A DNA stretch of 58,058 nucleotides from an uncultured Pseudomonadota bacterium (GTDB taxonomy: Bacteria > Pseudomonadota > Alphaproteobacteria > Rs-D84). Of the stretch, positions 12,893 through 56,260 are shown in pieces. The stretch's first letter is position 1. Each line of letters opens with the position of its first letter. Below the pieces are notes generated by a model. That model did no database searches. It saw only the letters and a program-made list of their open reading frames with translations, and was not told where the DNA came from. The position numbers were made by a program, and so were the translations under genes. The DNA lies in NCBI GenBank assembly GCA_949292385.1, contig CASEZC010000016.1, positions 1 to 58,058 of the forward strand, written 5' to 3'.

Positions 12893-13212
12893 AAAAAAAT
12901 ATGTCTATACAGTGTATATACAAAGTGCGGAAATCTGGCAAAAAAACGAATCGTTGTCAAAAAATAAATCTTGAAAAATTGTTCAACAATCGGTTGCAAA
13001 ACTGAATTAATCTTATAACTTATTGGACGTATCCAAAACGATTGAGAAACACTCAATCACCAAAGCGAGAGAGTAAGAAAACGTAGGCAAACATAAACAC
13101 TAAATTTTTATGAAATCGATTAAGATTAGTAAAATTTAGCGTTTATGTGCAGGTGATTTTTACACTCTTGCGCTGGCAGGAAACTCTTTTAAGAAAGGAA
13201 AGGAGAAACGAC

Positions 13213-14505
13213 ATGCAGGTAGCGGTGAAAAAAATAACAATGACTAACTTGGAACAAATCAAGGAGGCCATCGCCGCAAAAATGGATTCTGCAAGTTTTT
13301 CTTCTTGGATTGCACCTTTGCAGTTTGACGTTTCTGGTGATACATTAGTTTTAACGGCTCAGAATCAATTCTCGGCAGATTTTATCGGCAGTGTTCATGC
13401 AAATGTTTTAAATTCTGTTGCAGCTGAATTTGGTTTGAATGTTAAATTGGCAGTTAAAGGTACTACAGTTGTTGCAGCACCTGTTGCAAATGATAATAAC
13501 GTTCAAGCTTATGCACCAAAGACAGAAGATAAAGTAAATAACGTTTCTTCTGCAGTTGCATTTGATTCTTTCATCTTGTGTGAAGAAAATGCTTTCGTTG
13601 TTTCTGCATGCAAAAAATTAGCAGCGGGTGTAGTTCCATTTTCTCCGCTGTTTATTTATGGTCCAGCAGGCTGCGGTAAATCTTTGTTGGCAGATTGTAT
13701 CGAAGCTGCTTCAAATGGTCGTGTAATAAAAATGTCTGGTGGTCAGTTCGTTTCAGAATTTGCACGTAGCTTGCATGACAGATCTGTTTTTGCTTTTAAA
13801 GACTTCTGCCGTAATTGTGATACTTTCATTTTGGATGATGTTCAGACCTTGGCGGGTAAACGTGCAACTTGTGAAGAATTTATACAGTTGGTTATAGATT
13901 TACGTGCAGCAGGTAAAAATGTTGTTTTGACAGCAAATGCAGCACCAAATAATTTGTCAGGTTTTGATCGTCGTATGCAATCTTTGTTGGCATCTGGTTT
14001 GGTTGCAGATGTTGCAGCACCAACTGTAAATGTAAAACGTGTTATGTTGATGCGTGCAGGTGTTTCAGAAGAAGTTGCATCTTCTTTGGCAGCACGTATC
14101 GCAGGTGATGGTCACTTGGTTGGTGGCGTTGCAATGAAAATCAAAACATATGCAGATTTAATGGGTGAAAAAGTTACATTAGAAATTGCACAACGTTTAT
14201 TATCTGATACATTGCAGAAAGCAAAAACACCAATTGCAATGGTTAAGTCTATGTGTGAAAAATTGGGCGTTTCATATGATGCAGTATGCGGCAAAGGTCG
14301 TAGCCGTGCTGTTGTATTGGCTCGTCAAATGATGATGGCAGTATTGAAGGGGGCAACAAGCATGTCTTTGACAGAAATTGGTCGTGTATGCGGTGACCGT
14401 GATCATGCGACAGTATTGTATGCAATATCACAAGTTGAAAAAATGAAAAAAACAGATTTGGTATTAGCAGCTCAGATTAACCAAATGATAGAAGAATGCA
14501 AATAA
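13213..14505 (+). CDS. dnaA: Chromosomal replication initiator DnaA (divergent)
   Basis: 430 aa from the ATG at 13213, which is preceded by AGGAAAGGAGAAACGAC. Walker A GPAGCGKS, FILDDVQTLAGK, and C-terminal DNA-binding SLTEIGRVCGDRDHATVLYA. The ORF-track start at 13147 was judged an upstream extension. Confidence 0.85.
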   Translation: MQVAVKKITMTNLEQIKEAIAAKMDSASFSSWIAPLQFDVSGDTLVLTAQNQFSADFIGSVHANVLNSVAAEFGLNVKLAVKGTTVVAAPVANDNNVQAYAPKTEDKVNNVSSAVAFDSFILCEENAFVVSACKKLAAGVVPFSPLFIYGPAGCGKSLLADCIEAASNGRVIKMSGGQFVSEFARSLHDRSVFAFKDFCRNCDTFILDDVQTLAGKRATCEEFIQLVIDLRAAGKNVVLTANAAPNNLSGFDRRMQSLLASGLVADVAAPTVNVKRVMLMRAGVSEEVASSLAARIAGDGHLVGGVAMKIKTYADLMGEKVTLEIAQRLLSDTLQKAKTPIAMVKSMCEKLGVSYDAVCGKGRSRAVVLARQMMMAVLKGATSMSLTEIGRVCGDRDHATVLYAISQVEKMKKTDLVLAAQINQMIEECK

Positions 14506-38733: not shown

Positions 38734-38819
38734 TTTTAGCAAAAAAGTTATTTTTGCTTGATAAAAGGTGTTGACCCGATTCGTTAAAAAATGGTATCGT
38801 TTAAATGATAGAGAGAGTT

Positions 38820-41270
38820 ATGAAAAACGAATTAAAAATATCTATTTTAACTATTGCGTGTGTGCTGTTTTGTGCGGCTGCAACTGATGCGTATTCTGCT
38901 TCGTCTGTTCGTTCTCTTGGAGGAACGGGAACTTATACAAGTGCGTCAAGTGCAGCCAATTCTGGTGCTTCGACGGCATCTTTGCGTGGTGGGTCAGTTC
39001 GTGTTGGTACAACAAGTAGTAGTTCTGGCAGTGTTGCAAAACCTGTTGGAACAACTTCTACTGGTAGTGTTGTTACTACGCCACGTTTATCTATAGGTCA
39101 ATATCTTGGTGGTGGAACGTCTATTAGTGGTGGCAGTTCTCTTAGGCCACAGACTCCTGGTTCTGGTTCTTCTTCTGGTGGTGGTGCGATTGCCCCGGGT
39201 GTTACAGAGGGGTTACAGCGTGATGTTGATCAGTTAAAACGTGATGTTGAAGGGTTGAATAGTAGGGCAGATTCATTAGAAGATAGTTTGGATAATAAAC
39301 AGGAAACTTTATTACCTACGCCAGATGGTTATATTGTTATAGATGAAAGAACTAATGAAATTTTTGTCGATGTTGAAAATTTAAAAGACGCTATAGGTAT
39401 TGTAGCTGGTCAGGATGGTAGAGAAGTTGAGATTGGTTCTAATTCTACTCATTTGTTATGGCGTTATGTAGGCGAACCTACGTGGAATGAATTGATTTCT
39501 TTGGAAGAAATTCGTGGTCCGCAGGGTGAACAGGGACCTCAGGGTGAGCCTGGAACGCCTGCGGATATGTCTGCATATTCTACGACCGTTGAAATGAATG
39601 CGGCTATACAAGATGCGATTGATTTGGCTTCTGCAAATTATGCGACAAAAGCTGATTTGGACAGCAAGGTTAATGTTGGTGATGTTTATACGAAGTCAGA
39701 AACTTACACGAAAAGTGAAGTCGAACAGAAAATTGCTGATGCTGCGCTTGATGGCGAAGTTGATTTAAGTTCTTATGCGACAAAGGATGAATTGAATTTA
39801 AAAGCTGATAAAACGGAGTTAGCAAATTATGCAACTACGGATTCTGTTAATACGGCATTAGGGGATAAAGCTGATAAAACAACTGTTGAAGCATTGTCTG
39901 GTCGTGTTGATGGTATTGCTGATGATGCTGCAGCGGCTGGCGTATTGGCTGGACAAGCAAATGTTGCTGCAGAGGCTGCAAAGTCAGAAGCTGACAAAGC
40001 TAATCAGGCATTGGCTGGAAAAGCTGATAAGTCTGAGTTGGCTGGATATGCGACGACGGAAGCTTTAGAGGCTAAGGCGGATAAATCTGAATTGATAAAT
40101 CTTGCGACAAAAGATGAGCTTGCCACAAAAGCAAATGCAGGAGATGTTTATAAAAAATCAGAAACTTATAGTGCTGCTACGATTGATGAAAAAATAGCCG
40201 AGGCAGCAACTGGCGGCGAAGTTGATTTGTCCGGATATGCACAAAAAATTTATGTTGATGAACAGTTGGCAACAAAAGCTGATAAGGTATCATTGGATTC
40301 AAAAGCTGACAAATCAGAATTAACAAATCTTGCGACTAAGGAAGAATTGGCGGATAAGGCAGATGTGTCTGCTTTGGGGGCTTATGCTACAACGGAATCT
40401 ATGAACGAGGCTTTGGCGAATAAGGCTGATGTTTCGGCGTTGAATGCAAAAGCTGATAAATCGGAATTGACGAATCTTGCAACCAAGGATGAGCTGGGGC
40501 AAAAGGCAGATGCTTCTGCTTTGGTTGGAAAGGAAGATACTTCTAATAAGGTTGTATCTGCAGAGTTTGATGGTGCTGTTGCTGATGATTCTAAGTATCC
40601 TACTGTTAAAGCTGTTGCCGATCAGTTGGCAAAGAAGCAGGAAGCAGGTGATTATGCATTGAAGTCTGATTTGGACAATGTTGTTACGGAAGAAGATTTA
40701 GGGAATTATGCGACGAAAGACGAGTTGTCTGGGTATGCTTCTAAGTCTGAATTGGAAGGTAAGGCTGATGCTGAAACAGTTACAACGCTGGAATCTCGTG
40801 TTAGCGCGAATGAAGCTGGCATAAGTGGTTTGAATACAAAAGTTGGTTCAGGAGAGTTAACTACGACTTCAAAAGAAGTTATTGGTGCTATTAATGAATT
40901 GAAAACAAAAACTGATGGTATGGCAACTGACGGTAATTTTGAAGAAATGAATCAAAAAATTACTCAGATGGAACAGAAAGTTGATGGTGCTGTTTCAAGT
41001 ATAGAAGGTAAGGCAGAAAAGACTTATGTTGACGAGCAGTTGGCAACCAAGGCAAACGAAGCCGAATTGGGTGCATTGGCTAAGAAGGAACAAGTAAAAG
41101 ATGCTGATGTTGCTGCTGATGCTGCAATATCTCGTACAAAGTTAGCTGCAGATGTTCAAGAATCATTACAAAAAGCGGATTCTGCAATAAGTATAGAGGG
41201 TGCAGGTTCTAATAAAATTCTTGGAACTGATGAAAATGGTGATGAAGTTTGGTATTCAATAGCGTTTTAA
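38820..41270 (+). CDS. Exported fibre-like repeat protein 1 (Ser/Gly-rich linker, tail-fibre-like module, short collagen tract, long YATK/KADK repeat shaft)
   Basis: 816 aa from the ATG at 38820 (the ORF-track start at 38805 is possible). Signal peptide ILTIACVLFCAAATDAYSA. Contains GPQGEQGPQGEPGTP and more than 15 copies of the motif [SE]L.[NG][YL]ATK.EL..KADK. One D-D-S-K-Y-P-T-V-K-A-V motif. C-terminus KILGTDENGDEVWYSIAF. Confidence 0.8.
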   Translation: MKNELKISILTIACVLFCAAATDAYSASSVRSLGGTGTYTSASSAANSGASTASLRGGSVRVGTTSSSSGSVAKPVGTTSTGSVVTTPRLSIGQYLGGGTSISGGSSLRPQTPGSGSSSGGGAIAPGVTEGLQRDVDQLKRDVEGLNSRADSLEDSLDNKQETLLPTPDGYIVIDERTNEIFVDVENLKDAIGIVAGQDGREVEIGSNSTHLLWRYVGEPTWNELISLEEIRGPQGEQGPQGEPGTPADMSAYSTTVEMNAAIQDAIDLASANYATKADLDSKVNVGDVYTKSETYTKSEVEQKIADAALDGEVDLSSYATKDELNLKADKTELANYATTDSVNTALGDKADKTTVEALSGRVDGIADDAAAAGVLAGQANVAAEAAKSEADKANQALAGKADKSELAGYATTEALEAKADKSELINLATKDELATKANAGDVYKKSETYSAATIDEKIAEAATGGEVDLSGYAQKIYVDEQLATKADKVSLDSKADKSELTNLATKEELADKADVSALGAYATTESMNEALANKADVSALNAKADKSELTNLATKDELGQKADASALVGKEDTSNKVVSAEFDGAVADDSKYPTVKAVADQLAKKQEAGDYALKSDLDNVVTEEDLGNYATKDELSGYASKSELEGKADAETVTTLESRVSANEAGISGLNTKVGSGELTTTSKEVIGAINELKTKTDGMATDGNFEEMNQKITQMEQKVDGAVSSIEGKAEKTYVDEQLATKANEAELGALAKKEQVKDADVAADAAISRTKLAADVQESLQKADSAISIEGAGSNKILGTDENGDEVWYSIAF
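39516..39560 (+). repeat. Collagen-like Gly-X-Y tract (5 triplets) inside fibre protein 1
   Basis: Translates to GPQ GEQ GPQ GEP GTP. Immediately preceded by DGREVEIGSNSTHLLWRYVGEPTWNELISLEEIR. Confidence 0.85.
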
Positions 41271-41283
41271 AAGGGAAAAATAA

Positions 41284-43230
41284 ATGAGAAAAGGAAGTGT
41301 GATTTTTTCTGGTTTTATGGGAGCTCTGTTATTGAGTTATGGCGCCCGCGCTGCAGATGCACAGATTGCCAGCAAGCAATATGTTGATAACAAAGAAACC
41401 GCTATATTGGAAACGGTAAGCAGCACGTATGAAACAAAAGAAAATGTTACAAATTTAACGGAACAAGTAACACAGTTGGGTGATACTATTAATAATCCAG
41501 AGTCTGGTTTGTCTTCTAAGTTAGATAAGGCTGCTCAGGATGCATCTGATGCAAAGGGTGCCGTTGATGCTTTAACAGTTACTGTTGAGGGTAAGGAAGA
41601 TAAATCTAATAAAGCCGCTTCTATTTCTGTAAAAAATCAATCTTCACCAGATCAGTATCCTTCTGTTGGTGCTATCGTTCAGTGGACTAATGATAAGATT
41701 AATAAGTTGTCAGAAACTGGGTTGCCAGTTAGTCCAGATAACATCGGTGAAGGCGCGATAACAACAGAAAAAATTGCAAATGATGCAGTTACAGAAGATA
41801 AATTAAGTAATGATGTTGTTAGCAAAATTGATGGTAAAGAAGATAAAACAAACAAGATACAAAGCATAACGCCTGAATCTACTGCTGATCAGTATCCATC
41901 TGCAGTTGCTGTACGTGACGCGTTGGCCAATAAGGTAGATTCTTCTGCGCTTTCAGAATATGCAACGACAGAAGCGATGAACTCTGCACTCGAGGGTAAA
42001 GTTGATGATGCAGAAATTTCCGATATGTTGACCAAGACAGTTGCTTCTTCAACATATGAAACCAAGACTAATGCTTCATCTAAATATGCAACAAAGACAG
42101 AATTGTCTGGCTATGCGACTACTGCACAATTAGGACAAAAAGTTGAAGCTAACGTTGCAATAGAACCAGGTACCGGCACAAAGGTTACTTATGACGCGAA
42201 GGGGTTGGTAACGGGCAGTGAAAGTTTGTCTGTATCTGATTTGCCGGATAGCATACCGACTTCGAAGATAGACGGCTTGGCGACCGTTGCTACTACGGGA
42301 TCTTATAACGATTTGTCTGATAAACCTGTTATTCCAGAAGGTGCAGTTATTGATGCAGAATTGACACCAGAAGGAACTAATGCTGTTCAGGGTAAGGTTA
42401 TTTATGAGGCTTTGCAGGGCAAGCAGGATAAAGGTGATTACGCAACAAAAACTGAATTAACAGATGGTTTAGCTGAAAAGGCCGACAAAACAGCTTTGGA
42501 CAATTATGCAACAACTGAAACAGTTAATTTAAAAGAAGATAAATCAAATATTGTTCAGACTGTTCGTTCTTCGGCGGAAGCGGAAAAAACGAAGTATACA
42601 TCTGAAAAAGCTGTTGCAACGGCATTGGAAGGTAAGGCAGATACGAGTGCTTTAGATGCGTTGGCAACAAAAGAAGAGCTTGAACAAAAGGCTGATGCGT
42701 CTGCTTTGTCTGCGTATGCAACAACAGAGGCGATGAACAGTGCGTTGGCTAATAAAGCTGATTCTTCTGCTTTGACTGAAGGTCTGGCTAAAAAAGAAGA
42801 TTCTGCAAATAAAAGAATAGTTGTTCGTGATTCTGAAACAGCAACAGATACAGACTATCCATCTGAAAAAGCTGTCAGAACAGAGTTGGATAAGAAAGCA
42901 AACAAAGGTACTACACTTGCAGAATATGGCATTACTGATGCTTACACCAAAGGTGAAACTGATTCTGCAATTACAAGTGCTGTGGAAGGTGTTGTTGCCG
43001 GAGATTTTTCTGATGCAATGAAAGGAAAAGAAGACACATCAAATAAAACTACAGTGATAGATTCTTCTAATAAAACATCTACAGATAAATATACTAGTGT
43101 AAAAGCAGTAGTAGATTACGTAATCCCGAAACCTGATGTTTCTTGTCAGGCAGAATCAAACTTGTGTGTATTATCGGTCGACAGGGATGGTAATATAAAG
43201 TGGGTAAACGTAACAGAACCTGCACAATAA
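41284..43230 (+). CDS. Exported fibre-like repeat protein 2
   Basis: 648 aa. Signal peptide ...LSYGARA-ADAQIASKQYVD. Five copies of a [DK]-Y-[PT]-S-x-x-A-[VI] motif and YATT/YATK repeats. C-terminal Cys pair SCQAESNLCVLSVDRDGNIKWV. Confidence 0.8.
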   Translation: MRKGSVIFSGFMGALLLSYGARAADAQIASKQYVDNKETAILETVSSTYETKENVTNLTEQVTQLGDTINNPESGLSSKLDKAAQDASDAKGAVDALTVTVEGKEDKSNKAASISVKNQSSPDQYPSVGAIVQWTNDKINKLSETGLPVSPDNIGEGAITTEKIANDAVTEDKLSNDVVSKIDGKEDKTNKIQSITPESTADQYPSAVAVRDALANKVDSSALSEYATTEAMNSALEGKVDDAEISDMLTKTVASSTYETKTNASSKYATKTELSGYATTAQLGQKVEANVAIEPGTGTKVTYDAKGLVTGSESLSVSDLPDSIPTSKIDGLATVATTGSYNDLSDKPVIPEGAVIDAELTPEGTNAVQGKVIYEALQGKQDKGDYATKTELTDGLAEKADKTALDNYATTETVNLKEDKSNIVQTVRSSAEAEKTKYTSEKAVATALEGKADTSALDALATKEELEQKADASALSAYATTEAMNSALANKADSSALTEGLAKKEDSANKRIVVRDSETATDTDYPSEKAVRTELDKKANKGTTLAEYGITDAYTKGETDSAITSAVEGVVAGDFSDAMKGKEDTSNKTTVIDSSNKTSTDKYTSVKAVVDYVIPKPDVSCQAESNLCVLSVDRDGNIKWVNVTEPAQ

Positions 43231-43312
43231 ATAACAAAAAACGAAAAAAAGTTATTACATTAAAATTAAAAAAAAGATAAAATAAAAATAAATTAAGGAA
43301 AGGAAAGAGAAA

Positions 43313-44719
43313 ATGAAAAAACTAACATCCACTATTTTTGCGACTTTATTAACCGTAGTATCTGTTAATGCAGCAAACGCAGAAATCGCTTCAAAAGGCT
43401 ATGTCGACGAGGAAGTTGGCAAAGTTAATACTGCATTAGAAGGTAAAGTTGATGATGCAGAAATTTCTGATATGTTGACCAAGACAGAAGCAACATCAAC
43501 TTATGAAACAAAATCTCATGCTACTGCAACTTATGCAACAAAGACGGAATTAGCTGGTAAAGCAGATACAACAGCATTAACAGCAAAACAAGATGTAGCT
43601 AATTTGGTTAATTCGGCAGGATTTGAAGGAGCAAAAACAGATGATGCGAAATACCCATCTGTAAAAGCTGTTGCGGATGCAATCACAAAAGCTACAGAAG
43701 GTATCGCATCTGATGAAGTTGTTAGTGCGTTGGGTGAACGTGTAACAACGGCAGAAGGTGAAATTGATGCTTTGCAAACAGGTAAAGCCGATAAAGCAAC
43801 TTCTTTGGCAGGCTATGGCATAACAGATGCTTATACAAAAGGTGAATCTGATGGAAGATATGCAACAGCTGCACAAGGTGCTTTGGCAGATAGTGCTTTG
43901 CAGAAACAGGGCGTATTAACACAAGGAAACTTGTTAACGACAGATGCAACCGGAAAAATTATAGACGCTGGTAAGAAGGGCGCTTTGGCTGCAAAAGACA
44001 CTGTCGCTGCAGACGATATCGCAGCAAATGCTGTAACAACTGCAAAAATTTTAGATGGAAATGTAACAAAAGCAAAATTAGCTACAGAAGTTCAGGCTTC
44101 CTTGGGTAAAGCAGATACTGCACTTCAAGCGGATGCGATTGCAGATATGTTGACCAAGACAGAAGCAACATCAACTTATGCAACAAAGACGCAATTAGCT
44201 GGTAAAGCAGATACAACTGCATTGACCGCAAAAGAAGATGTTGGGAATAAAGTTAATGCTGCAAACTATGAAGCCAATAAAACAAATGATACAAAATATC
44301 CAACTGTAAAGGCTGTTGCAGACGCAATCACAAAAGCTACAGAAGGTATCGCATCTGATGAAGTTGTTAGTGCGTTGGGTGAACGTGTAACAACGGCAGA
44401 AGGTGAAATCGATACTTTGCAGTCAGATGTTTCTGCTAATAAAACTGCAATTGGTACAGTTGGCAGCTTAACTACAGAAGAAAAAACTAATTTGGTTGGT
44501 GCAATTAATGAAGTAGATGCAAATGCAAATGCAGCTAAAACTGCAGCAGATGCTGCACAAAGCACGGCTGATCAAGCAAAAGCAACAGCTGATAAGGCGA
44601 TACCGGCTCCAACACCAGAATGTACAAATTTGGGTGCGAAATGTGTATTAGTTGTTGGTAATGATGGATATGCATGGGAAGTTATTCAAAGAGGAACTTC
44701 TGAAGGTGGTCAACCATAA
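43313..44719 (+). CDS. Exported fibre-like repeat protein 3
   Basis: 468 aa. Signal peptide ...VSVNA-ANAEIASKGYVD. An internal ~100-aa module is present twice. C-terminal Cys pair ECTNLGAKCVLVVGNDGYAWEV. Confidence 0.8.
   Translation: MKKLTSTIFATLLTVVSVNAANAEIASKGYVDEEVGKVNTALEGKVDDAEISDMLTKTEATSTYETKSHATATYATKTELAGKADTTALTAKQDVANLVNSAGFEGAKTDDAKYPSVKAVADAITKATEGIASDEVVSALGERVTTAEGEIDALQTGKADKATSLAGYGITDAYTKGESDGRYATAAQGALADSALQKQGVLTQGNLLTTDATGKIIDAGKKGALAAKDTVAADDIAANAVTTAKILDGNVTKAKLATEVQASLGKADTALQADAIADMLTKTEATSTYATKTQLAGKADTTALTAKEDVGNKVNAANYEANKTNDTKYPTVKAVADAITKATEGIASDEVVSALGERVTTAEGEIDTLQSDVSANKTAIGTVGSLTTEEKTNLVGAINEVDANANAAKTAADAAQSTADQAKATADKAIPAPTPECTNLGAKCVLVVGNDGYAWEVIQRGTSEGGQP
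43469..43764 (+). repeat. Intragenic direct repeat, copy 1 (fibre gene 3)
   Basis: Matches 44144-44409. 84 nt are identical (43681-43764 = 44326-44409). Copy 1 carries a 30-nt insertion encoding ETKSHATATY. Confidence 0.9.
44144..44409 (+). repeat. Intragenic direct repeat, copy 2 (fibre gene 3)
   Basis: See copy 1. Both encode ...DMLTKTEATSTY..ATKT.LAGKADTTALTAK.DV....KYP.VKAVADAITKATEGIASDEVVSALGERVTTAEGEID. Confidence 0.9.
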
Positions 44720-44832
44720 TACGATAAAATAAGAAAAATCTGACTTAAAAGTCTTTCATGATTTTTAAGTCAGAAAAATAAATTCTAAAATTGCAGTTAG
44801 TTGGTATTATTTTGTAATAGAATAGATTTGAT

Positions 44833-46359
44833 ATGATAAAAACAAAATTTGTTTTTGCGGTTTCATTTTTAGCACTGTTTGTTGCAACTGATTATGCGTT
44901 TGGTGCAATCGCGTCCAGTGGATATGTTGATCAACAGGTGGATACTCGTTTGTCAAGTATAACGGGTTCAACGACCGGTGAAGGTAACGTTGTTACAGAA
45001 GTTACTGCTAGTGGTGGTGCGATAACTGCAACCAAAGGTATAAATGCCGAGGTTACATCAAATAAAGCAACTGCAGAGAGCGTTGTTGCTGATGATAAAG
45101 GTAGTACGGAAAAGTATCCGTCTGTTGCAGCCGCAGAAAAAATTGCCGAGGTTGCAGCGCAGACAGCATCAGAAAATTCATTACAAAAAGATGGTGCTTT
45201 AACAGAGGGCAATTTATTAAAATCTGACGCCAGTGGTAAAGCGGTAGATTCTGGTGTTGCCAGTGATAAGGTTTTAACCAATACTGCAACAGGTGCAGGG
45301 GCTTTGGGGGTAAATGCAGATTCTTCAGGTAATAATTCAATAGCAATTGCGGGAAGCCGTTCTTCTGGTACTTTTGCTTCAGGAACTAATAGTATAGCGA
45401 TTGGTAATAGTTTTGGATATGGAGGAAATGTCGTAGCAGAAGGGAGTAATTCTATTGCGCTTGGAACTAACTCTTATTCGGGTGCTGATTATGCCATACA
45501 GCTAGGTAGAGGCTCAAACAGCGAGGCAAATACATTTAGTGTGGGGTTGTCGGATTCTAATAACTATAAACTGCTTGGTTCGGATGGTAAGATACCTGCA
45601 GAAAGATTACCTTTTGAAGGTGATGTTTTAACTAACACCGCAACTGGCAGTGATTCTTTCAGTACTGGTGGCGCAATACCTGTTACTTCTGAAGGGGCGG
45701 TTGTTTTGGGGGCTTCGTCTTCAACTTCTGGTAATGCATCGGTGGTTGTTGGTAGTTCTTCATCTGCTACAAATGATTTTTCTACAGCTTTGGGGCCTAA
45801 TACAAATGTTACAGCTACAGGAGGTACTGCTGTTGGTAACGCCGCAAAAGTGGCTGCAGAAAGTGCTATACAATTAGGATATGGAACTAATAATGAAGCT
45901 AATACGCTTAGTGTAGGTTTGTCTGTTGATAATAACTATAAACTGCTTGGTTCGGATGGTAAGATACCGGTGGAACGCATGCCGTTTGAAGGTACTGTTG
46001 TAACTAATACTAATCCTTCTGGATTTGCTATAGGCGGTGCCGATGGAGGTTATAATGGATTTGCTATAGGTGTTGCTGCAAATGGTGGCGGATACGGTGT
46101 TGCTGTTGGACCTGGTAGTTCTGCTGATAATTACTCTGTATCTGTCGGACGTAATGCGAAATCTTCAAATGGTGGCATACAAATAGGTACTGGTACAAAT
46201 AGTGAGGATAATACTCTTAGTATAGGTTTGTCTAGCTCTAATAACTATAAACTGCTTGGGTCGGATGGGAAGATTCCATCGGAAAGATTGCCGGCGGCTA
46301 TGATTCCAGTTGGCAGTTCTACTTCACCAACCAGTTATGCGACGTTCTGGATTGAATAA
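44833..46359 (+). CDS. Exported fibre-like repeat protein 4 (three tandem Gly/Ser/Asn-rich head-like modules)
   Basis: 508 aa. Signal peptide ...VATDYAFG-AIASSGYVD. One EKYPSVAAA motif. Three modules each end in NT[FL]S[VI]GLS..NNYKLLGSDGKIP.ER[LM]P. GSNSIALG / TNSIAIG repeats resemble YadA-type head repeats. Confidence 0.8.
   Translation: MIKTKFVFAVSFLALFVATDYAFGAIASSGYVDQQVDTRLSSITGSTTGEGNVVTEVTASGGAITATKGINAEVTSNKATAESVVADDKGSTEKYPSVAAAEKIAEVAAQTASENSLQKDGALTEGNLLKSDASGKAVDSGVASDKVLTNTATGAGALGVNADSSGNNSIAIAGSRSSGTFASGTNSIAIGNSFGYGGNVVAEGSNSIALGTNSYSGADYAIQLGRGSNSEANTFSVGLSDSNNYKLLGSDGKIPAERLPFEGDVLTNTATGSDSFSTGGAIPVTSEGAVVLGASSSTSGNASVVVGSSSSATNDFSTALGPNTNVTATGGTAVGNAAKVAAESAIQLGYGTNNEANTLSVGLSVDNNYKLLGSDGKIPVERMPFEGTVVTNTNPSGFAIGGADGGYNGFAIGVAANGGGYGVAVGPGSSADNYSVSVGRNAKSSNGGIQIGTGTNSEDNTLSIGLSSSNNYKLLGSDGKIPSERLPAAMIPVGSSTSPTSYATFWIE
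45271..46296 (+). repeat. Three tandem in-frame coding modules in fibre gene 4
   Basis: Modules start near 45271, 45625 and 45997. The 39-nt tract TAATAACTATAAACTGCTTGGTTCGGATGGTAAGATACC is identical at 45558-45596 and 45930-45968. A slightly diverged third copy lies at about 46240-46278. Spacing is 372 nt, then 309 nt. Confidence 0.9.
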
Positions 46360-48000: not shown

Positions 48001-49794
48001 ATGAATCAAAAGAATATCAGAAACTTTGCTATTGTTGCGCATATTGACCATGGAAAGTCTACTTTATCAGATAGATTGATTGAATATACTGGCGGTTTGC
48101 AATCGCGCGAAATGAAATCGCAAGTTTTGGATTCTATGGATATTGAACGTGAACGTGGTATTACGATTAAAGCACAGACTGTTCGGTTGAATTATACCGC
48201 AAAAGACGGGCAGGTGTATCAGTTGAATTTAATGGATACGCCTGGGCATGTTGACTTTTCTTATGAAGTTTCTCGTAGTTTGGCTGCATGTGAGGGGGCC
48301 TTGATTTTAGTTGATGCAACGCAAGGTGTTCAAGCACAGACTTTGGCAAATGCTTATCTGGCGTTGGATAATGATTTGGAAATGTTGCCGGTATTGAATA
48401 AAATTGATTTGCCGTCTAGTGATGTTGATGCCGCGCGTGAGCAGATTTCAGATGTTATCGGTTTGGATGCGAAAAACGCAATTTGTGTTTCAGGTAAAAC
48501 AGGGGCAGGGGTGCCGGATTTATTAGAAGAGATTGTAAAAAAGTTACCGTCACCACATGGTGATGAAAATAAACCAACGCGCGCGCTTTTGGTTGATTCT
48601 TGGTATGATTCTTATTTAGGTGTTGTGGTTTTAGTGCGTGTCGTTGACGGAAATTTGCAACGTGGTCAGAAAATAAAGTTTATGGCGACTGGTGCAGAAT
48701 ATACTATAGAAAAAATTGGATATTTTACACCGAAAATGGTCGATGTGGATAAACTGACAACTGGTGAAATTGGTTTTATTATTACGGGTATGAAAACCAT
48801 ACATGATTGTAAGGTTGGAGATACAATTGTTGATGCAAAGTGTTCTGCAGATGAACCTTTGCCGGGCTTTAAACCTTCGATTCCTGTAGTGTTTTCTTCT
48901 TTCTTTCCGGTAGAAGCCGATGATTATCCAAACTTGCGTGACGGTGCAGAAAAGTTGGCTTTGAATGATGCGTCTTTCGTGTTTACAACAGAAAAGTCTT
49001 CTGCGTTGGGATTTGGCTTACGTTGTGGATTTTTAGGCTTGTTGCATATGGAAATTATCAGCGAGCGTTTACGTAGAGAATTTAATTTAAGTCTGATTAA
49101 TACAGTGCCAAGCGTGCTTTATAAAGTCTATCTGCGCGACGGATCTGTAATCGATTTAGAAAATCCTGCTGATATGCCGGATGTTACGAAAATTGCTTCT
49201 ATAGAAGAACCGTGGGTTAGGGCGACTATCATGATGCCTGATAAATATATGGGTGGAATAATGTCGCTGTGTTCCGAACGTCGTGGGGTACAAGAAAATA
49301 TATCTTATATCGGTAATCGTGCGGTTCTGGTATACCTTTTGCCGCTGTCGGAAATTGTTTTTGATTTTTATGATAGGGTAAAATCTTTGTCTTCGGGGTA
49401 TGCGTCGTTTGATTATGTCTTGAACGGCTATCAGGCTTCCGATTTGGTTAAAGTTTCTATATTGGTAAACGAAGAAAATGTAGAACCTTTATCTTTTATG
49501 TGTCACAGAAGTTCTGCAGAAAAACGTGGTCGTCAGATTGTTGAAAAATTAAAAGACCTTATACCAAGACATCAATTTAAAATACCGCTGCAGGCTGCTA
49601 TTGGCGGAAAAATTATCGCGCGTGAAACTATCGCTGCATACCGTAAAGATGTTACGGCAAAATGCTATGGCGGTGATATCACACGAAAAAGAAAGCTTTT
49701 GGAGAAACAAAAAGAGGGAAAAAAGCGTATGCGTACGTTTGGTAATGTAGAAATTCCACAATCTGCATTTATAAACGCACTGAAAGTATCTTAG
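48001..49794 (+). CDS. lepA: Elongation factor 4 (LepA)
   Basis: 597 aa from the ATG at 48001. G1 [21 protein letters not shown], and LepA C-terminal domain ...[24 protein letters not shown]. Confidence 0.95.
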
Positions 49795-49812
49795 TTTAAA
49801 AGGGTTTAGGTT

Positions 49813-50205
49813 ATGTTTAAAGATATTATTAGGTATGCTTTTATTGCTCCTTTTTTGTATTTGGGTAAAGATATAAAAGAATATAAAAAGTTGGGGTATT
49901 TGGTAGAAGACGCAAAAATAGAAGCGGATGTTGCACGTGAAAAAATAACCAAGGTTTATTATGGCGATAAAATTGGGTTATCTTGTTTTAAAGTGTGTGA
50001 AGCTTTTGTAGAAAAAAAGAATAATCCAGATTATGAGTTTTCTTTTTCTCAAGAAAGAAAGTGTGTGTTTGTTGATAATTGCGATAAAAAATATTGTCCT
50101 TTTTATCAGAAACGCCAAGAATACGTTCAGCTTGTATCTAAGTTTAGAGAATTGCTTGAGGTTAAAAGGAATTTTTGGCTTAAAAAATTAGAGAAGTTTA
50201 GATAA
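49813..50205 (+). CDS. Small Cys-containing protein, tandem paralogue 1 of 4 (unknown family)
   Basis: 130 aa. N-terminal IIRYAFIAPFLYLGKDIKEYKK. Central C-x5-C-x4-C (CVFVDNCDKKYC). C-terminal KRNFWLKKLEKFR. RBS AAAGGG upstream. Confidence 0.7.
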   Translation: MFKDIIRYAFIAPFLYLGKDIKEYKKLGYLVEDAKIEADVAREKITKVYYGDKIGLSCFKVCEAFVEKKNNPDYEFSFSQERKCVFVDNCDKKYCPFYQKRQEYVQLVSKFRELLEVKRNFWLKKLEKFR

Positions 50206-50222
50206 TAAAAGAGGTATGGTTT

Positions 50223-50615
50223 ATGTTAAAAGGGTTTATAAAGTATTTTTTTGTTGCACCATATAAGTATATAAAAAGAGATATAGAAGATTATAAAGAC
50301 CTAAAGAGAGATATAAAAAACTTGAATATAGGTCTTGTGGACGCTTTGTCGGATATCACTTTTTGCCGTGATGAAGCAGAACCTTCTTGTGGGTGTGTTA
50401 CTAATTATATTTATTATATAGGTAAAGGTCCGGAAATAAAAAGGTTAGGTTATTATAAACGGAGTTGTCCGAATTTTAATGGCAGACCATGCAAAAAAGA
50501 AGAATGTCTTTATAGTTTAGCGAATCATAAGTATTATGGGATTAGGGAAGAATTAAATAAAAAGAAGCAATTAAAAAAGAATTTTTGGATAAATAAATTA
50601 CAAAAAATAAAATAA
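50223..50615 (+). CDS. Small Cys-containing protein, tandem paralogue 2 of 4
   Basis: 130 aa. N-terminal FIKYFFVAPYKYIKRDIEDYKD. Central CPNFNGRPCKKEEC...HKY. C-terminal KKNFWINKLQKIK. Confidence 0.7.
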   Translation: MLKGFIKYFFVAPYKYIKRDIEDYKDLKRDIKNLNIGLVDALSDITFCRDEAEPSCGCVTNYIYYIGKGPEIKRLGYYKRSCPNFNGRPCKKEECLYSLANHKYYGIREELNKKKQLKKNFWINKLQKIK

Positions 50616-50635
50616 AAAAAGAAAGAGTATAGAAG

Positions 50636-51040
50636 ATGAACTTAGTAAAATATGTAATAAAAACACCATTGAAAACAATTTTTAATGAAATTTTAAATTA
50701 TAGACATTTGTCTGAATTGTGTGAGGCAGAACGTAAACGTTGTGAAGATGCTTTGCTGGTTGCAACAAATATTTATAAAGAGAAAAGCGATAACTTCGGT
50801 AAAGATTGTGATGGTTGTTATGTAAAGTGGATAGAAAAAAGAAGAAATGATTTTGATGATGTTGAAGTAAAAGTTCATGATTATAAATGCTCAAAGTTTA
50901 GCATGAATGTTCCTTGTGATAATAAAAATTGCAGATATCATAAGATGAATAATTTGCTGCATGAGTATTTAGAGGAATATGAACATTGCAAAAAACAGAA
51001 GAGAGATTTTGTATATAACATAAACGAAAGAATAAAATAA
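50636..51040 (+). CDS. Small Cys-containing protein, tandem paralogue 3 of 4 (most divergent)
   Basis: 134 aa. N-terminal LVKYVIKTPLKTIFNEILNYRH. Central CSKFSMNVPCDNKNCRYHK. C-terminal KRDFVYNINERIK. Confidence 0.65.
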   Translation: MNLVKYVIKTPLKTIFNEILNYRHLSELCEAERKRCEDALLVATNIYKEKSDNFGKDCDGCYVKWIEKRRNDFDDVEVKVHDYKCSKFSMNVPCDNKNCRYHKMNNLLHEYLEEYEHCKKQKRDFVYNINERIK

Positions 51041-51091
51041 AATTTTGGAAGGAAAGGAATACTGTTTTTATATTTTATAAAGGAAGTAAAT

Positions 51092-51514
51092 ATGTATAAA
51101 TTTTTAAAATATCTTGTCAGTACTCCATTGTCGATCGTCGTTGAAGATTTTAAAGCTTATAACACGATAAGCAAAGAATGTAAGGATTTGCGTCGTGATT
51201 ATGTATCTACAAGAATGGAATTGGTAGCTTTATATAACGCAGAGAAATTTGTTGATAATAAAGATAAAATATCTTGTATATCAAGAAAAATTTATGCAGC
51301 CGAAGATAGGGCTTTTCCTTTTAAAATAAATTCTGTCGTATCGAAAAGTTTTTGTCCTAAGTTTACACCAGCTTATTCTGAAAAGGCGTGTGAATGCAAA
51401 GATTGTCCGTGTGTAGAAAAAAATCATAAATACAATTTAGCAATGCAAAAGTATAATGCTGCTGTGTGTAAGAAAAACGCGTTCTGGGAAGAAAAATTTC
51501 AGAACTTAAAATAA
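51092..51514 (+). CDS. Small Cys-containing protein, tandem paralogue 4 of 4
   Basis: 140 aa. N-terminal FLKYLVSTPLSIVVEDFKAYNT. Central CPKFTPAYSEKACECKDCPCVEKNHKY. C-terminal KKNAFWEEKFQNLK. Confidence 0.7.
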   Translation: MYKFLKYLVSTPLSIVVEDFKAYNTISKECKDLRRDYVSTRMELVALYNAEKFVDNKDKISCISRKIYAAEDRAFPFKINSVVSKSFCPKFTPAYSEKACECKDCPCVEKNHKYNLAMQKYNAAVCKKNAFWEEKFQNLK

Positions 51515-51542
51515 TAACCTTATTTAAATTAGGGTGGAAAAA

Positions 51543-52550
51543 ATGGCGCATCAATTCTTTTTTAACCCGTATATATTAGATAACTTGCCGGCACCAAGTA
51601 AGGGGTTTGATGTCGTGCAAGATTTGTCGGAGCCAAGATTGCGCCTTTATATAACCAGCCGTGGCGTTAAGAGTTTTTTTGTGCGTAAGCGTGTTCATGG
51701 ACATGATAAAAGAATTATAATAGGTAAATATCCAGATATTGATATTGAAGAAGCACGCGCAAAAGTCCCTGAAATTTTAGAACAGGCTTCTAAAAAAATA
51801 CCGATTCGGCATAAACAAATATCTGTTAAAAAATTATTTGATTTGTATTTAGAAAATAAAGTTAGACGTAATTGGTATTCTAAAGATAAGTTAGAACGTG
51901 CTATTGATAGACACTTGGTAAAGCTTTTTGATAAAAAAGTTGCTGATGTTTCTGCTGAAGATGTGTCGGCGGTTATATCTGAAATACAAGGACGTGCAAT
52001 TGCTGGGCGCATGCAAGAATTATTGCAAAGCGTTTTTAACTATGCAATTGATATGGGGTATACAAAGACTAATCCTGTGCGCGGATTACAGAAAATAGAA
52101 CAAACGCGCCGTATAAGACCTTTGAATAAGTCAGGGTTACAAAAGTTATTTGCTGCTATAAATCAGGAAGAAAATCAGACGTTAAGAGCCGCGTTTTTAA
52201 TGCTTATTTACGGGTTTGCGCCAAAATCAAAAATATTTTCTATGCAGTGGCAAGACCTTGATTTTAATCACTATACTTGGAATGGAATGCCTTTGTCTGA
52301 TGCCGCTGTCGTCGTTTTGCAAGACTTGCCTCAAGATGGGGTGTGGGTGTTCCCTGGTAGAGGAATGGGGCATCTTACCGACCCAAGAGTTGCATGGAAA
52401 AAAATAATAGATGCGGCAGGTGTAAAAAATTTGACTATGGATGACGTTTATAAGTTTATGTCACGCAGGTTAATATGGGCTTCTGATAAAGAAGATTTTC
52501 GTAATAATATGAATAATTTAATCGAAGATTTTACTTCGGAAACATTTTAA
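51543..52550 (+). CDS. P4-type tyrosine-integrase homologue lacking the catalytic residues (degenerate or exapted)
   Basis: 335 aa from the ATG at 51543. The N-terminal arm-binding (DUF4102-like) domain is intact (LPAPSKGFDVVQDLSEPRLRLYITSRGVKSFFVRKRV...IIIGKYPDIDIEEARAK). Box I reads LIYGFAPKSKIF instead of LLTGxRxxE. Box II reads TMDDVYKF instead of xHDLRRT. There is no Tyr in the final ~30 residues. Confidence 0.65.
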   Translation: MAHQFFFNPYILDNLPAPSKGFDVVQDLSEPRLRLYITSRGVKSFFVRKRVHGHDKRIIIGKYPDIDIEEARAKVPEILEQASKKIPIRHKQISVKKLFDLYLENKVRRNWYSKDKLERAIDRHLVKLFDKKVADVSAEDVSAVISEIQGRAIAGRMQELLQSVFNYAIDMGYTKTNPVRGLQKIEQTRRIRPLNKSGLQKLFAAINQEENQTLRAAFLMLIYGFAPKSKIFSMQWQDLDFNHYTWNGMPLSDAAVVVLQDLPQDGVWVFPGRGMGHLTDPRVAWKKIIDAAGVKNLTMDDVYKFMSRRLIWASDKEDFRNNMNNLIEDFTSETF

Positions 52551-52555
52551 TTCGT

Positions 52556-52584
52556 TTGTCAAGTTTGTTATCGTTTGTTATAAT
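52556..52584 (+). promoter_or_regulatory. Candidate sigma70 promoter for acpP-fabF
   Basis: TTGTCA, 17-nt spacer, TATAAT. About 87 nt upstream of the acpP ATG. Confidence 0.45.
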
Positions 52585-52671: not shown

Positions 52672-52905
52672 ATGACAACTTTTGAAAAAGTAAAAAAAAT
52701 CGTAGCTGAAAAATTGGGTGTTCCAGAAGCAAAAGTTACAGAAGAAGCTTCTTTTGTAAACGATTTGGGTGCGGATTCTTTGGACGTTGTTGAATTCGTT
52801 ATGGAAGTTGAAAAAGAATTTGATATTACAATTCCTGATGAAGAAGCTGCAAAGTTGACAACAGTTGGTGATGCTGTTAAATATATCGAAGCTCATCAAA
52901 AATAA
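52672..52905 (+). CDS. acpP: Acyl carrier protein
   Basis: 77 aa. Phosphopantetheine attachment site [11 protein letters not shown]. Confidence 0.96.
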
Positions 52906-56183: not shown

Positions 56184-56260
56184 CGGAGTGTAGCTCAGCC
56201 TGGTAGAGCGCTACGTTCGGGACGTAGAGGCCGCTGGTTCGAACCCAGTCACTCCGACCA
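56184..56260 (+). tRNA. tRNA-Pro(CGG)
   Basis: 77 nt. Acceptor CGGAGTG/CACTCCG, D-arm TAGCTCAGCCTGGTAGAGC, anticodon stem-loop CTACG-TTCGGGA-CGTAG, T-arm GCTGGTTCGAACCCAGT, encoded CCA. Confidence 0.92.

Follow-up and report, generated by a model that had tools for sequence, protein, structure and literature searches.

What are the four short, AT-rich open reading frames that lie between lepA and an integrase-like gene in this uncultured alphaproteobacterium: chance frames, the cargo of a mobile island, or native genes of a family with a role of its own? In the window, by which we mean the whole 58,058-nucleotide stretch of DNA that was analysed, lepA, the array, the integrase-like gene, the promoter match and acpP are all on the + strand. 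lepA (EF4; 48001..49794), assigned from its open reading frame and the Pfam domains of its orthologue, forms the fixed left border directly 5' of the array. The array itself (49813-51514) consists, as originally described, of four same-strand ORFs, which we refer to as paralogue 1 (130 residues; 49813..50205), paralogue 2 (130 residues; 50223..50615), paralogue 3 (134 residues; 50636..51040) and paralogue 4 (140 residues; 51092..51514), separated by spacers of 17-51 nt. Each gene has its own purine-rich Shine-Dalgarno-like motif, in agreement with the first-pass annotation, which had also noted that the sequences upstream of genes 1 and 2 resemble each other; there is a modest similarity in the form of an 18-nt repeat at 89%, but its two copies do not sit at matching distances from the start codons. 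The proposed paralogy of the four genes holds in a formal test, as the six pairwise Smith-Waterman scores (74-134) compare with shuffle means of 32-35 (z of 6.3-15.9, with 0 of 500 shuffles scoring as high), and BLASTP aligns the pairs with E-values from 1e-9 to 4e-4 at 19-28% identity. Downstream lie the integrase-derived gene (51543..52550; 335 residues from a conserved start, MAHQFFFN) and acpP (52672..52905), an ORF that is its fixed right neighbour. Because the array spacers are short, a terminator scan reveals no convincing terminator between lepA and the integrase-like gene, and the only strong promoter match in the lepA-integrase-like-acpP stretch precedes acpP (sigma-70-like, 52556..52584; 11/12 matches with an extended -10 TG), lepA through the integrase-like gene likely form one predicted transcription unit whose right end is marked by the acpP promoter. 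Weak terminator-like hairpins occur only inside the integrase-like coding sequence, where four were found as compared to 3.2 expected from shuffles.

Searches of Pfam, NCBIfam, PHROGs, PADLOC, PDB and BFVD return no match for the four proteins, which had rightly been described as an unrecognised family, and PADLOC-DB v2 contains no defence-system family that matches any of them at E<=1. A word-indexed protein search returned only 6, 3 and 5 proteins and badly underestimates the size of the family, which was instead determined by an exhaustive profile search together with a scan of gene neighbourhoods. The exhaustive search (E<=1e-3) yields about 304 clusters at 50% identity, with members that are nearly all 123-148 residues long; four members (P0082, P0104, P0114 and P0129) are fused two-domain proteins. 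When 145 diverse members were scanned against Pfam and PHROGs, only scattered single matches appeared (CHORD, Albumin_I), which we judge to be noise. Conservation across the family rules out the concern that the ORFs might be spurious; the four are genuine, native genes and belong to a protein family without a previous description. Named members come from gut and rumen alphaproteobacteria akin to Candidatus Enterousia (order Rs-D84), and within the searches made the family is known only from these reduced-genome bacteria. Their genomes are roughly 0.7-1.6 Mb in size and the organisms, which are strictly fermentative gut anaerobes, are thought to be obligate symbionts or parasites (PMC12306168). 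A scan of a genome collection with the family found nothing, and the same scan with LepA found the two nearest MAGs. Viral collections, searched with limited sensitivity, contain no relatives of either the family or the integrase-like gene, and no account of the lepA/array/integrase-like locus was found in the literature on Enterousia and Rs-D84.

In other genomes, too, the family adjoins an integrase-like gene, always the same one with a single exception, a divergent member located at another site (locus L101). In 60 of 87 loci a total of 127 members are present, all on the + strand and immediately upstream of the integrase-like gene, and four further loci that were looked up share this context; wherever it could be read (the 87 loci and these four), the order is lepA, head-to-tail family members, integrase-like gene and acpP, save for that exception. 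The number of members in the array changes often and ranges from zero to eight. No copies are present in 14 of 67 complete intervals, and in 13 of these 14 lepA abuts the integrase-like gene with a gap of 2-60 nt; in the integrase-like tree the zero-copy loci are scattered over no fewer than five separate positions. Near-identical strains also differ, as locus L155 carries five copies and loci L150, L153 and L159 carry eight, at 95-100% identity. On the other side, 48-142 nt separate the integrase-like gene from acpP in all loci that extend to acpP. The duplications had been suspected to be old or fast-evolving, and an old origin is supported by a best within-locus paralogue identity that never exceeds ~35% over the full-length alignment, a value on which recent tandem amplification was rejected. 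Its evolution proceeds through birth and death of copies, through deletion and through the replacement of alleles.

The gene downstream of the array was correctly identified as a homologue of P4-type integrases. Its product retains Arm-DNA-bind_3 (PF13356, 34.6 bits with a cut-off of 27) and Phage_int_M (PF22022, 31.7 bits with a cut-off of 27) above the Pfam thresholds and matches PHROG 1 (integrase) with an E-value of 5e-30, features that it shares with CP4-57-like enzymes. Together, Pfam and the alignments delineate an arm-binding, a core-binding and a degenerate catalytic domain. For the latter (PF00589) the score is 14 bits where the cut-off is 27.1, with only residues 197-250 aligned to positions 3-57 of the 172-position profile, and profile alignments with PDB entries end at residue 239. 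Arg212 of Lambda Int (Arg I) aligns to Pro227, an almost invariant residue within a conserved YGFAPK motif. The other residues of the catalytic set R-K-H-x-x-R-[HW]-Y were judged by eye only, and on this basis the H-x-x-R region reads as an invariant TMDDV.KF and the last 30 residues contain no Tyr. Unlike P4-type integrases, which it also differs from in being a fixed single-copy gene that is not located at a tRNA or island border, the protein thus appears to have lost recognizable catalytic residues. The term "integrase relic" that had been applied to it is not supported, as the clade conserves the gene in single copy and purifying selection on it is strong (dN/dS = 0.068). There are 156 relatives in metagenomes, and each of the 87 loci carries the gene, at 60-87% identity, between lepA and acpP wherever both are on the contig. 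Its product has an identity to the consensus of 0.76 in zero-copy loci and 0.74 in loci with an array; since it is equally conserved without the array, it does not need the family, and an obligate partnership between the two was rejected. The gene is a candidate example of a domesticated bacterial tyrosine recombinase, one that may have given up catalysis and yet is conserved throughout the clade as sampled.

The AT-richness of the array, estimated by eye at the outset, is confirmed by computation, as the four genes have a GC content of 27-31% (28.7% overall) compared with 36.9% across the window, and lepA, the integrase-like gene and fabF reach 37-41%. Third-position GC in the array (0.22-0.25) lies inside the range of its neighbours (0.17-0.32), the GC content of the family follows that of each host genome, and the AT-richness of the array stems from its amino-acid composition. 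Neither att-like nor attC-like nor flanking direct repeats were found at the locus; the only tRNA, at 56184, lies 3.6 kb away, no other mobile-element genes are nearby, and nothing resembling the array or the integrase-like gene was found near lepA in more distant bacteria. The claim that the genes reside on an island is therefore not supported, given the fixed lepA-acpP synteny, purifying selection, third-position GC and the lack of repeats. Among relatives only the copy number of the array varies while the integrase-like gene is constant, and because the array always sits between lepA and this conserved gene, it is a native feature of the lineage rather than a recent island. The original description as anti-defence, host-interaction or regulatory cargo possibly holds, and then only as a statement on evolutionary behaviour. 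Two other arrangements were considered and rejected. Integrons are characterized by an active IntI divergent from its cassettes, by attI and attC sites and by unrelated cassette genes, whereas here the integrase-like gene is co-directional with and downstream of the array, there are no attC-like inverted repeats, and the array genes are all homologous; a shufflon was discarded as no repeats were found at the locus.

The suggestion that the genes evolve rapidly is well supported, as array dN values of 0.27-0.43 compare with 0.03 for lepA and fabF, amounting to 10-16 times the dN of neighbouring genes. Pairwise dN/dS in the array is 0.17-0.52, in all cases below 1, with saturated dS between orthologues; for example, paralogues 1 and 2 are 44.5% and 60.5% identical to their orthologues in locus L004, with dN/dS values of 0.52 and 0.25, respectively. 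The family is under purifying selection despite its speed, and because the pairwise ratios are 0.17-0.52, positive selection is not demonstrated. Paralogue 3 is only 71% identical to its counterpart in locus L001 (dS of 0.77), and the neighbouring genes are 96-100% identical. The diverged segment has sharp borders against a background dS of 0.04-0.14, a pattern which indicates that the copy was swapped for a divergent allele within one species.

Conserved positions were taken from the 145 diverse members. In the numbering of paralogue 4, the invariant or near-invariant residues are Y7, D19, Y23, C62, C88, F91, C100, C105, N111, Y114, F131 and W132, and on this basis the putative metal ligands form a Cys4 set. 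The set is present in all four copies of the window, at C58, C84, C90 and C95 in paralogue 1, C58, C82, C90 and C95 in paralogue 2, C61, C85, C94 and C99 in paralogue 3, and C62, C88, C100 and C105 in paralogue 4, which has additional cysteines. The cysteine cluster and terminal motifs described in the first-pass annotation are therefore conserved, but the CCCH knuckle proposed there is not, as the fourth ligand is a cysteine ~25 residues upstream and the histidine of the H-K-Y motif is not conserved; the C-terminal FW motif of paralogue 3 is, as had been noted, degenerate, with neither the Y nor the W. Each protein is ~130 residues long, basic (median pI 9.1) and hydrophilic, and further cysteines are common (median of 7 per protein). 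By eye the N-terminus, which is conserved and partly charged, is unlike a signal peptide, and the proteins match no secretion-related Pfam family. The AlphaFold2 model of paralogue 4 (m0c6d0a98a322; pLDDT 93.4, pTM 0.81) has two long helices, one near each terminus (residues 13-42 and 108-137), that flank a β-sheet of three strands and a loop rich in cysteines. Judging from this topology alone, the two helices would run antiparallel, side by side, in a hairpin that carries the sheet and the Cys4 site at its far end. Sequence entropy is lowest at the base of the hairpin (2.3-2.5 bits) and highest in the sheet and the middle of the helices (3.2-3.8 bits). A shared zinc-ribbon or knuckle fold, as had been envisaged, is not what is seen, as the putative ligands are two single cysteines (62 and 88) and a C100-x4-C105 pair instead of two C-x2-C knuckles or the C-x2-C...H-x4-C pattern of a CCHC knuckle, and no Pfam zinc-finger family turns up repeatedly across the 145 members. 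Foldseek comparisons of the model with PDB and BFVD returned nothing below an E-value of 0.03; the top matches are generic long-helix proteins (V-ATPase D, F1 gamma), and neither Xis/RDF nor nucleic-acid-binding proteins are matched. The putative site would most likely bind zinc, although sequence does not distinguish zinc from an Fe-S cluster.

To account for these features we tentatively favour a model in which the family proteins are metal-stabilized adaptors, constant at the base and variable at the head, whose candidate partner is the nearby, apparently dead integrase-like protein. Each protein would be held together by its metal, most likely zinc. The N-terminal Y/D/Y/L and C-terminal FW..K motifs would pack at the base of the hairpin to form a constant docking or dimerization surface, and the β-sheet head and the surfaces of the mid-helices would form the variable part that sets specificity. 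The proteins may act as homo- or heterodimers, as the fused two-domain members suggest. Their ligand would preferably be a nucleic acid or a partner bound to nucleic acid, and the prime candidate partner would be the predicted co-transcribed integrase derivative, which retains two DNA-binding domains; the array would then supply accessory, interchangeable specificity factors at the position that xis genes occupy upstream of int. Several points speak against the link between adaptors and integrase: tandem duplication alone could hold the copies at the site in the absence of a functional tie, 14 intervals are copy-free, and the L101 member lies at another site.

The family resembles several known systems in part. 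Excisionases and recombination directionality factors (Xis/RDF), such as those of lambda and Tn916, are likewise small, basic, fast-evolving proteins encoded on the same strand directly upstream of an integrase-family gene with which they are co-transcribed (here a prediction). However, only the gene position fits, as the family has no winged-helix/HTH match in Pfam, PHROG or NCBIfam and adopts a different predicted fold, and the up to eight tandem paralogues contrast with lambda and Tn916, where a single xis gene lies immediately upstream of int; moreover, there is no excision to direct because the integrase-like protein has no recognizable catalytic residues. The vsa/vpma/vsp loci of Mycoplasma, which carry Xer-like recombinases, and the recombinase-associated orphan immunity arrays of gut Bacteroidales also contain tandem diverged or variable genes beside a tyrosine-recombinase-family gene, in host-associated bacteria that often have reduced genomes, and their copy number also varies by strain. 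These systems possess an active recombinase together with recombination sites or inverted orientations, whereas the genes of the family array all point the same way, the locus yielded no repeats, and the recombinase lacks recognizable catalytic residues; in addition, the Mycoplasma products are surface lipoproteins and the family proteins show no sign of a signal peptide. The WhiB-like (Wbl) proteins are similarly small and mostly helical, have no signal peptide, contain four invariant cysteines and occur as several diverged paralogues per genome. There is no sequence or profile match between the two, Wbl genes are dispersed instead of tandem, and the Wbl cysteine spacing, C-x(14-22)-C-x2-C-x5-C, differs from that of the family.

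A further resemblance concerns the zinc subdomain of the phage single-stranded DNA-binding protein gp32. When the family profile was compared with 177,635 PDB sequences, the top four matches, and the only ones with E-values below 1, were T4 and RB69 gp32 (E = 0.023-0.12). Aligned by hhalign with eight gp32 sequences, the family gives a P-value of 4e-4 and a probability of 35%, which falls to 11.5% (P = 0.0026) once the set is widened to fifteen gp32 sequences that are diverse and in many cases devoid of the Cys ligands. The gp32 score of 28.8 compares with 11.4 +/- 2.2 for column shuffles, and 23.8 with 10.4 +/- 2.2 when only the zinc subdomain is shuffled; in both cases 0 of 150 shuffles reach the score. 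In the reverse direction, a gp32 zinc-subdomain HMM fills its top 30 places with family members, ahead of 7,910 decoy ORFs. Over ~50 residues the two (gp32 represented by 1GPC and 2A1K) share three cysteines, N-x2-Y, a second tyrosine and an aromatic-Trp pair in the same order, with two β-strands before the first aligned cysteine and a helix after the last. The family residues C88, C100 and C105 align with Cys77, Cys87 and Cys90 of gp32, which are zinc ligands, and Y114 and Y121 align with its DNA-binding tyrosines Tyr99 and Tyr106 (PMC8549804, PMC535899). These matches raise the possibility that the ssDNA-contacting zinc subdomain of gp32 is the ancestor of the Cys-rich loop together with the first part of the C-terminal helix, and that the proteins are small zinc-dependent ssDNA or RNA binders, for example RNA chaperones or translational repressors co-made with LepA. 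We consider this unlikely, as all E-values are borderline, gp32 is the best pick from a very large set, and the probability drops when diverse gp32 sequences are included. The family proteins also lack the OB fold, for which ~130 residues and a helix-sheet-helix model leave no room; their cysteine module lies between two long terminal helices, their first ligand is a cysteine 26 residues upstream as compared to a histidine 13 residues upstream in gp32, their spacing is C-x4-C instead of C-x2-C, and longer strands precede the site. Neither the Foldseek matches to the paralogue 4 model nor the Pfam families listed for the 145 members include gp32. For the adaptor model, the likeness is a weak lead towards nucleic-acid binding.

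A rival account, which we regard as possible but doubtful, is that the array is a stand-alone repertoire of cytoplasmic binders that neutralize or sense variable molecules, as in immunity to polymorphic toxins, anti-phage sensing or interaction with a partner organism, the integrase-like neighbour being a historical accident. Such a role would suit a dispensable family that is absent in at least five places of the integrase-like tree, varies between zero and eight copies even among near-identical strains, has a dN 10-16 times that of its neighbours, has had its copy 3 allele replaced within a species (dS of 0.77 against 0.04-0.14), and is nonetheless kept and expanded in the ~0.7-1.6 Mb genomes of presumed symbionts or parasites (PMC12306168). 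It is weakened by the lack of an adjacent toxin, secretion or defence gene, of a PADLOC match and of relatives on viral contigs, by pairwise dN/dS values of only 0.17-0.52, and by a basic charge and a conserved aromatic/Cys head that suit nucleic-acid binding at least equally well. If instead the four cysteines held an Fe-S cluster, the proteins could be redox- or NO-sensing regulators like the actinobacterial WhiB-like proteins. Four invariant cysteines in a small, mostly helical protein, the further cysteines (median of 7) and the several paralogues per genome in strictly fermentative gut anaerobes (PMC12306168) would agree with this, but Pfam, NCBIfam and PDB show no match to Wbl or any Fe-S family, the cysteine spacing is unlike that of Wbl, and fast divergence and copy-number change would be left unexplained, which makes this account improbable. 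More improbable still is the view of the first-pass annotation, that the genes are anti-defence or regulatory cargo of a recently acquired island with a decayed integrase. The AT-rich block, the adjacent integrase homologue and the unannotated family prompted it, but it is at odds with an integrase-like gene that is fixed between lepA and acpP under strong purifying selection, with neighbour-like third-position GC and a family GC that tracks the host, and with a locus that has no flanking repeats, no other mobile-element genes, no tRNA closer than 3.6 kb, nothing similar to either gene near lepA in more distant bacteria and no viral relatives found. That the ORFs are merely open frames in AT-rich DNA has a negligible probability; AT-rich DNA gives few chance stop-free frames only if coding, but length, motifs and reading frame persist across about 300 clusters, comparison with orthologues, at saturated dS, yields dN/dS values under 1, and the AlphaFold2 model is confident.

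The adaptor model can be extended to a new two-part system, in which a dead, domesticated integrase would be a fixed DNA-binding scaffold and a hypervariable array of helical Cys4 adaptors would redirect it towards nucleic-acid or protein ligands that diversify, be it in defence or in controlling the interaction with a partner organism; we hold this version to be rather unlikely. Should either this system or the repertoire of stand-alone binders be correct, it would show how uncultured, partner-dependent bacteria handle other cells or mobile elements. That up to eight paralogues are kept and expanded in such small genomes implies a real selective value of the family. It is new in that it is unannotated and has no detectable sequence or fold relatives, and it occurs in little-studied gut and rumen alphaproteobacteria with genomes of the order of 1 Mb or less, in which the fixed lepA/integrase-like/acpP site provides a handy marker of strain-level variation in metagenomes.

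Four consecutive ORFs on the forward strand encode small, cysteine-containing proteins: paralogue 1 (49813-50205, 130 aa), paralogue 2 (50223-50615, 130 aa), paralogue 3 (50636-51040, 134 aa) and paralogue 4 (51092-51514, 140 aa). They are separated by spacers of 17-51 nt, and a purine-rich Shine-Dalgarno-like motif precedes the start codon of each of the four, in agreement with the first-pass annotation, which had also proposed that they are paralogues of an unrecognised family. A formal test bears out the paralogy: Smith-Waterman scores for all six pairs are 74-134 as compared to shuffle means of 32-35 (z 6.3-15.9; 0 of 500 shuffles match the real score for any pair), and BLASTP among the four returns E-values of 1e-9 to 4e-4 at 19-28% identity. 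The four proteins have no meaningful match among the Pfam, PHROG, NCBIfam and PADLOC models, consistent with an unrecognised family. An 18-nt repeat, 89% identical, is present at 49791-49808 (TTAGTTTAAAAGGGTTTA) and 50221-50238 (TTATGTTAAAAGGGTTTA); it lies 5' of gene 1 but covers the first five codons of gene 2, start codon included, and could be left over from an earlier 5' end of gene 1 or have arisen by chance in AT-rich DNA.

The genes belong to a family of small Cys4 proteins that is new and restricted to one clade; its members are encoded in a site-specific tandem array of variable copy number within a probable housekeeping transcription unit. A word-indexed protein search returned only six family proteins, whose contigs share the gene order of the window (VTT-domain gene, rbfA, GNAT gene, lepA, four family genes, integrase-like gene, acpP, fabF). 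By LepA (89-91% identity), the closest genomes are two uncultured alphaproteobacterial MAGs, and in both a lone small, Cys-rich ORF separates lepA from the integrase-like gene. Querying a metagenome collection with the integrase-like protein gave 156 relatives, with 80 loci retained, and a family HMM iterated across every ORF of 87 loci identified 127 members in 60 of them, all on the plus strand and immediately 5' of the integrase-like gene. Among 67 intervals containing both lepA and the integrase-like gene, with two subfamilies pooled, 14 contain no copy, 25 contain one, 14 two, 3 three, 6 four, 2 five and 3 eight. Of the 14 zero-copy intervals, 13 have the two genes 2-60 nt apart, and the remaining one (locus L085) has a gap of 140 nt with no gene inside. 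When 1.84 billion representatives were searched exhaustively with the family profile, 304 clusters passed E<=1e-3 and 129 passed E<=1e-10, nearly all of 123-148 aa, with a few fused two-domain proteins of 244-257 aa; the three listed representatives that were looked up (two from the list's weakest quarter and one fused double) lie in tandem arrays, and the gene after each array starts MAHQFFFN. Neither the family nor the integrase-like gene is present around lepA in more distant bacteria, and a search of limited sensitivity found no relative of either in viral contigs. Members with names are Candidatus Enterousia, and the others derive from gut and rumen alphaproteobacteria. Ca. Enterousia is placed in the order Rs-D84. 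Members of this group have genomes of ~0.7-1.6 Mb with neither respiration nor most biosynthetic pathways, and are regarded as obligate symbionts or parasites (PMC12306168). The window itself probably derives from the same group. The family is not described in the papers that our searches found on Enterousia or Rs-D84.

A divergent subfamily (140-186 aa), connected to the main family by jackhmmer, adjoins lepA in ten loci: L006 (9797-10288), L092, L097, L127, L134, L139, L149, L152, L162 and L163. Its proteins start with M..IIQDYKNW, end with NF.FWK, and contain C-x2-C in place of C-x4-C. The sole family member seen off the lepA/integrase-like site, in L101 (10330-11298, minus strand), is a 186-aa protein of this subfamily followed by a second small Cys-rich ORF of 134 aa, the pair lying downstream of the integrase-like gene, ~4 kb from it. 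Two family domains are joined head to tail in proteins of 244-258 aa (representatives P0082, P0104, P0114 and P0129, and L150 3566-4342), which suggests that the single-domain proteins work as dimers.

Conservation was counted in 145 diverse members, using the residue numbering of paralogue 4. C88, C100 and C105 occur in every member and C62 in all but one (144), whereas Y7, D19, Y23, F91, N111, Y114, F131 and W132 are each kept in 85-95%. The Cys4 set is present in all four window copies. Thus, the conserved cysteine cluster noted previously holds, but the CCCH knuckle proposed for it does not, as the suggested histidine ligand is not conserved and the site is Cys4. The proteins are basic (median pI 9.1) and hydrophilic, with a median of 7 Cys, and, judged by eye, their N-terminus, which is conserved and partly charged, is unlike a signal peptide. 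An AlphaFold2 model of copy 4 built from a deep alignment (pLDDT 93.4, pTM 0.81) contains helices at residues 2-10, 13-42 and 108-137, strands at 45-49, 63-71 and 79-87, and a Cys-rich loop at 88-107. From this model we infer that the long helices would pair as an antiparallel hairpin carrying the small sheet and the putative metal site at its far end; both the pairing and the geometry of the site are predicted. Sequence entropy is lowest at both termini (2.3-2.5 bits), which would form the base of the predicted hairpin, and highest in the sheet and mid-helices (3.2-3.8 bits). Foldseek with the copy-4 model revealed no match below E 0.03 in the PDB or BFVD. Library searches, and structure searches of the PDB and BFVD, assigned the family to no known kind.

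Divergence was referenced to locus L004, whose LepA is 96% identical to that of the window. The four family orthologues have amino acid identities of 44-61%, dN of 0.27-0.43 and dN/dS of 0.17-0.52 (a range excluding copy 4, for which saturated dS precludes the ratio), as compared to 95-96%, ~0.03 and 0.02-0.04 for lepA and fabF. The family is fast-evolving yet under constraint. Same-locus paralogues never exceed ~35% identity in full-length alignments and orthologues retain their array position, so the duplications are old; the earlier suggestion of old or fast-evolving duplications fits both this ceiling and the elevated dN. A deletion separates near-identical strains, with five copies in L155 and eight in L150, L153 and L159; shared copies are 95-100% identical, the difference amounts to three array genes, and the deletion may have left the second-last L155 array gene as a chimera. 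Zero-copy loci are dispersed over at least five places on the integrase-like tree. In a same-species comparison of the window with conspecific contigs (LepA 100% identical, dS 0.04-0.14), copy 3 has 71% amino acid identity and a dS of 0.77. The DNA of copy 3 and its 3' spacer (50660-51090) is ~20% diverged from L001 4790-5195. This divergence sets in abruptly at codon 9 of copy 3 and breaks off abruptly where the spacer before copy 4 ends; the spacer carries a 39-nt indel relative to L001, while the flanking genes are 96-100% identical to the conspecific contigs. Copy 3 therefore looks like an allele imported or replaced through recombination.

The array's fixed neighbour (51543-52550, plus strand) is a domesticated integrase without recognisable catalytic residues. 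Its mechanical ORF has a GTG start at 51534; as all 87 homologues begin with MAHQF, ATG 51543 is likely the true start. The arm-binding and core-binding domains score above Pfam thresholds, and the catalytic domain falls short, at 14 bits where the cut-off is 27.1. A profile alignment to lambda integrase structures stops at residue 239 and pairs the lambda catalytic Arg212 with Pro227 in a conserved YGFAPK; by eye, the H-x-x-R region is an invariant TMDDV.KF and the last 30 residues contain no Tyr. Judged by recognisable residues the protein appears non-catalytic, and it probably binds DNA. It is 87% identical to its L004 counterpart (dN 0.088) and 60-87% identical over the sampled clade; its dN/dS of 0.068, taken from a comparison in which synonymous divergence is saturated, compares with 0.02-0.04 in housekeeping neighbours. 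Because it is conserved under low dN/dS, and equally so in 14 lineages without the array and 53 with it, the gene is not the decaying integrase relic it had been taken for, and the equal conservation argues that its function is independent of the array.

The array had also been read as island cargo, and its AT-richness, previously judged by eye, was confirmed by computation (27-31% GC versus 36.9% for the window). Third-position GC, however, is 0.22-0.25 in the four array genes, inside the range of their neighbours (acpP 0.17, fabF 0.22, integrase-like gene 0.30, lepA 0.32); the AT excess lies at codon positions 1 and 2 and is therefore an effect of amino acid composition. Over 60 loci family GC tracks the host genome, lying ~5 points under the integrase-like gene in 59. 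A repeat search at the locus found neither att-like nor attC-like repeats, and the single tRNA gene lies at a distance of 3.6 kb. Third-position GC, host-tracking GC, absent repeats and the distant tRNA tell against the island reading, which we consider very unlikely. A terminator scan from lepA to acpP detected just weak hairpins in the integrase-like coding sequence, not above shuffles, and the single strong promoter match of this stretch is immediately 5' of acpP; the array is thus most simply read as part of one lepA-to-integrase-like transcription unit.

For the mechanism, our tentative preference is that the proteins would be metal-stabilised adaptors with a constant base and a variable head, whose target would be nucleic acid or the co-transcribed, probably DNA-binding protein derived from the integrase. 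The main rival, a repertoire independent of that neighbour and serving conflict or partner interaction, seems to us rather unlikely. A weak lead towards nucleic acid came from PDB sequences, where the top four matches to the family profile, and the sole ones with E < 1, are T4 and RB69 gp32 (E 0.023-0.12), all over the zinc subdomain. Alignment with eight T4-like gp32 sequences by hhalign (P 4e-4, probability 35%) pairs C88, C100 and C105 of copy 4 with gp32 Cys77, Cys87 and Cys90, which bind zinc along with His64 (PMC8549804). [quoted passage not shown] The score of 28.8 exceeds column shuffles (11.4 +/- 2.2), as does that of the zinc subdomain only (23.8 versus 10.4 +/- 2.2), with 0 of 150 shuffles reaching either, and an HMM of the gp32 zinc subdomain ranks family members above 7,910 decoy ORFs. 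Adding seven diverse gp32 sequences, many without the Cys ligands, lowers the probability to 11.5%, and gp32 was picked post hoc as the best match. A real link is unproven and, from these alignments, possible but doubtful; if true, it could tie part of the family protein to a known domain. That the proteins are themselves gp32-like binders of single-stranded nucleic acid is improbable, and an Fe-S sensor built on the Cys4 site is more improbable still.

Elsewhere in the window, Pfam returns nothing at E<=1e-5 for four consecutive large ORFs (38805-46359, plus strand; 821, 648, 468 and 508 aa). The corresponding position of L004 holds a 421-aa gene with a faint YadA_head match, and the four may encode surface or adhesin-like proteins. 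dnaA (13147-14505, plus strand) lies ~36 kb upstream of the array, which places the locus close to the likely origin of replication; over 44-58 kb of the window the cumulative GC skew shows a steady rise.
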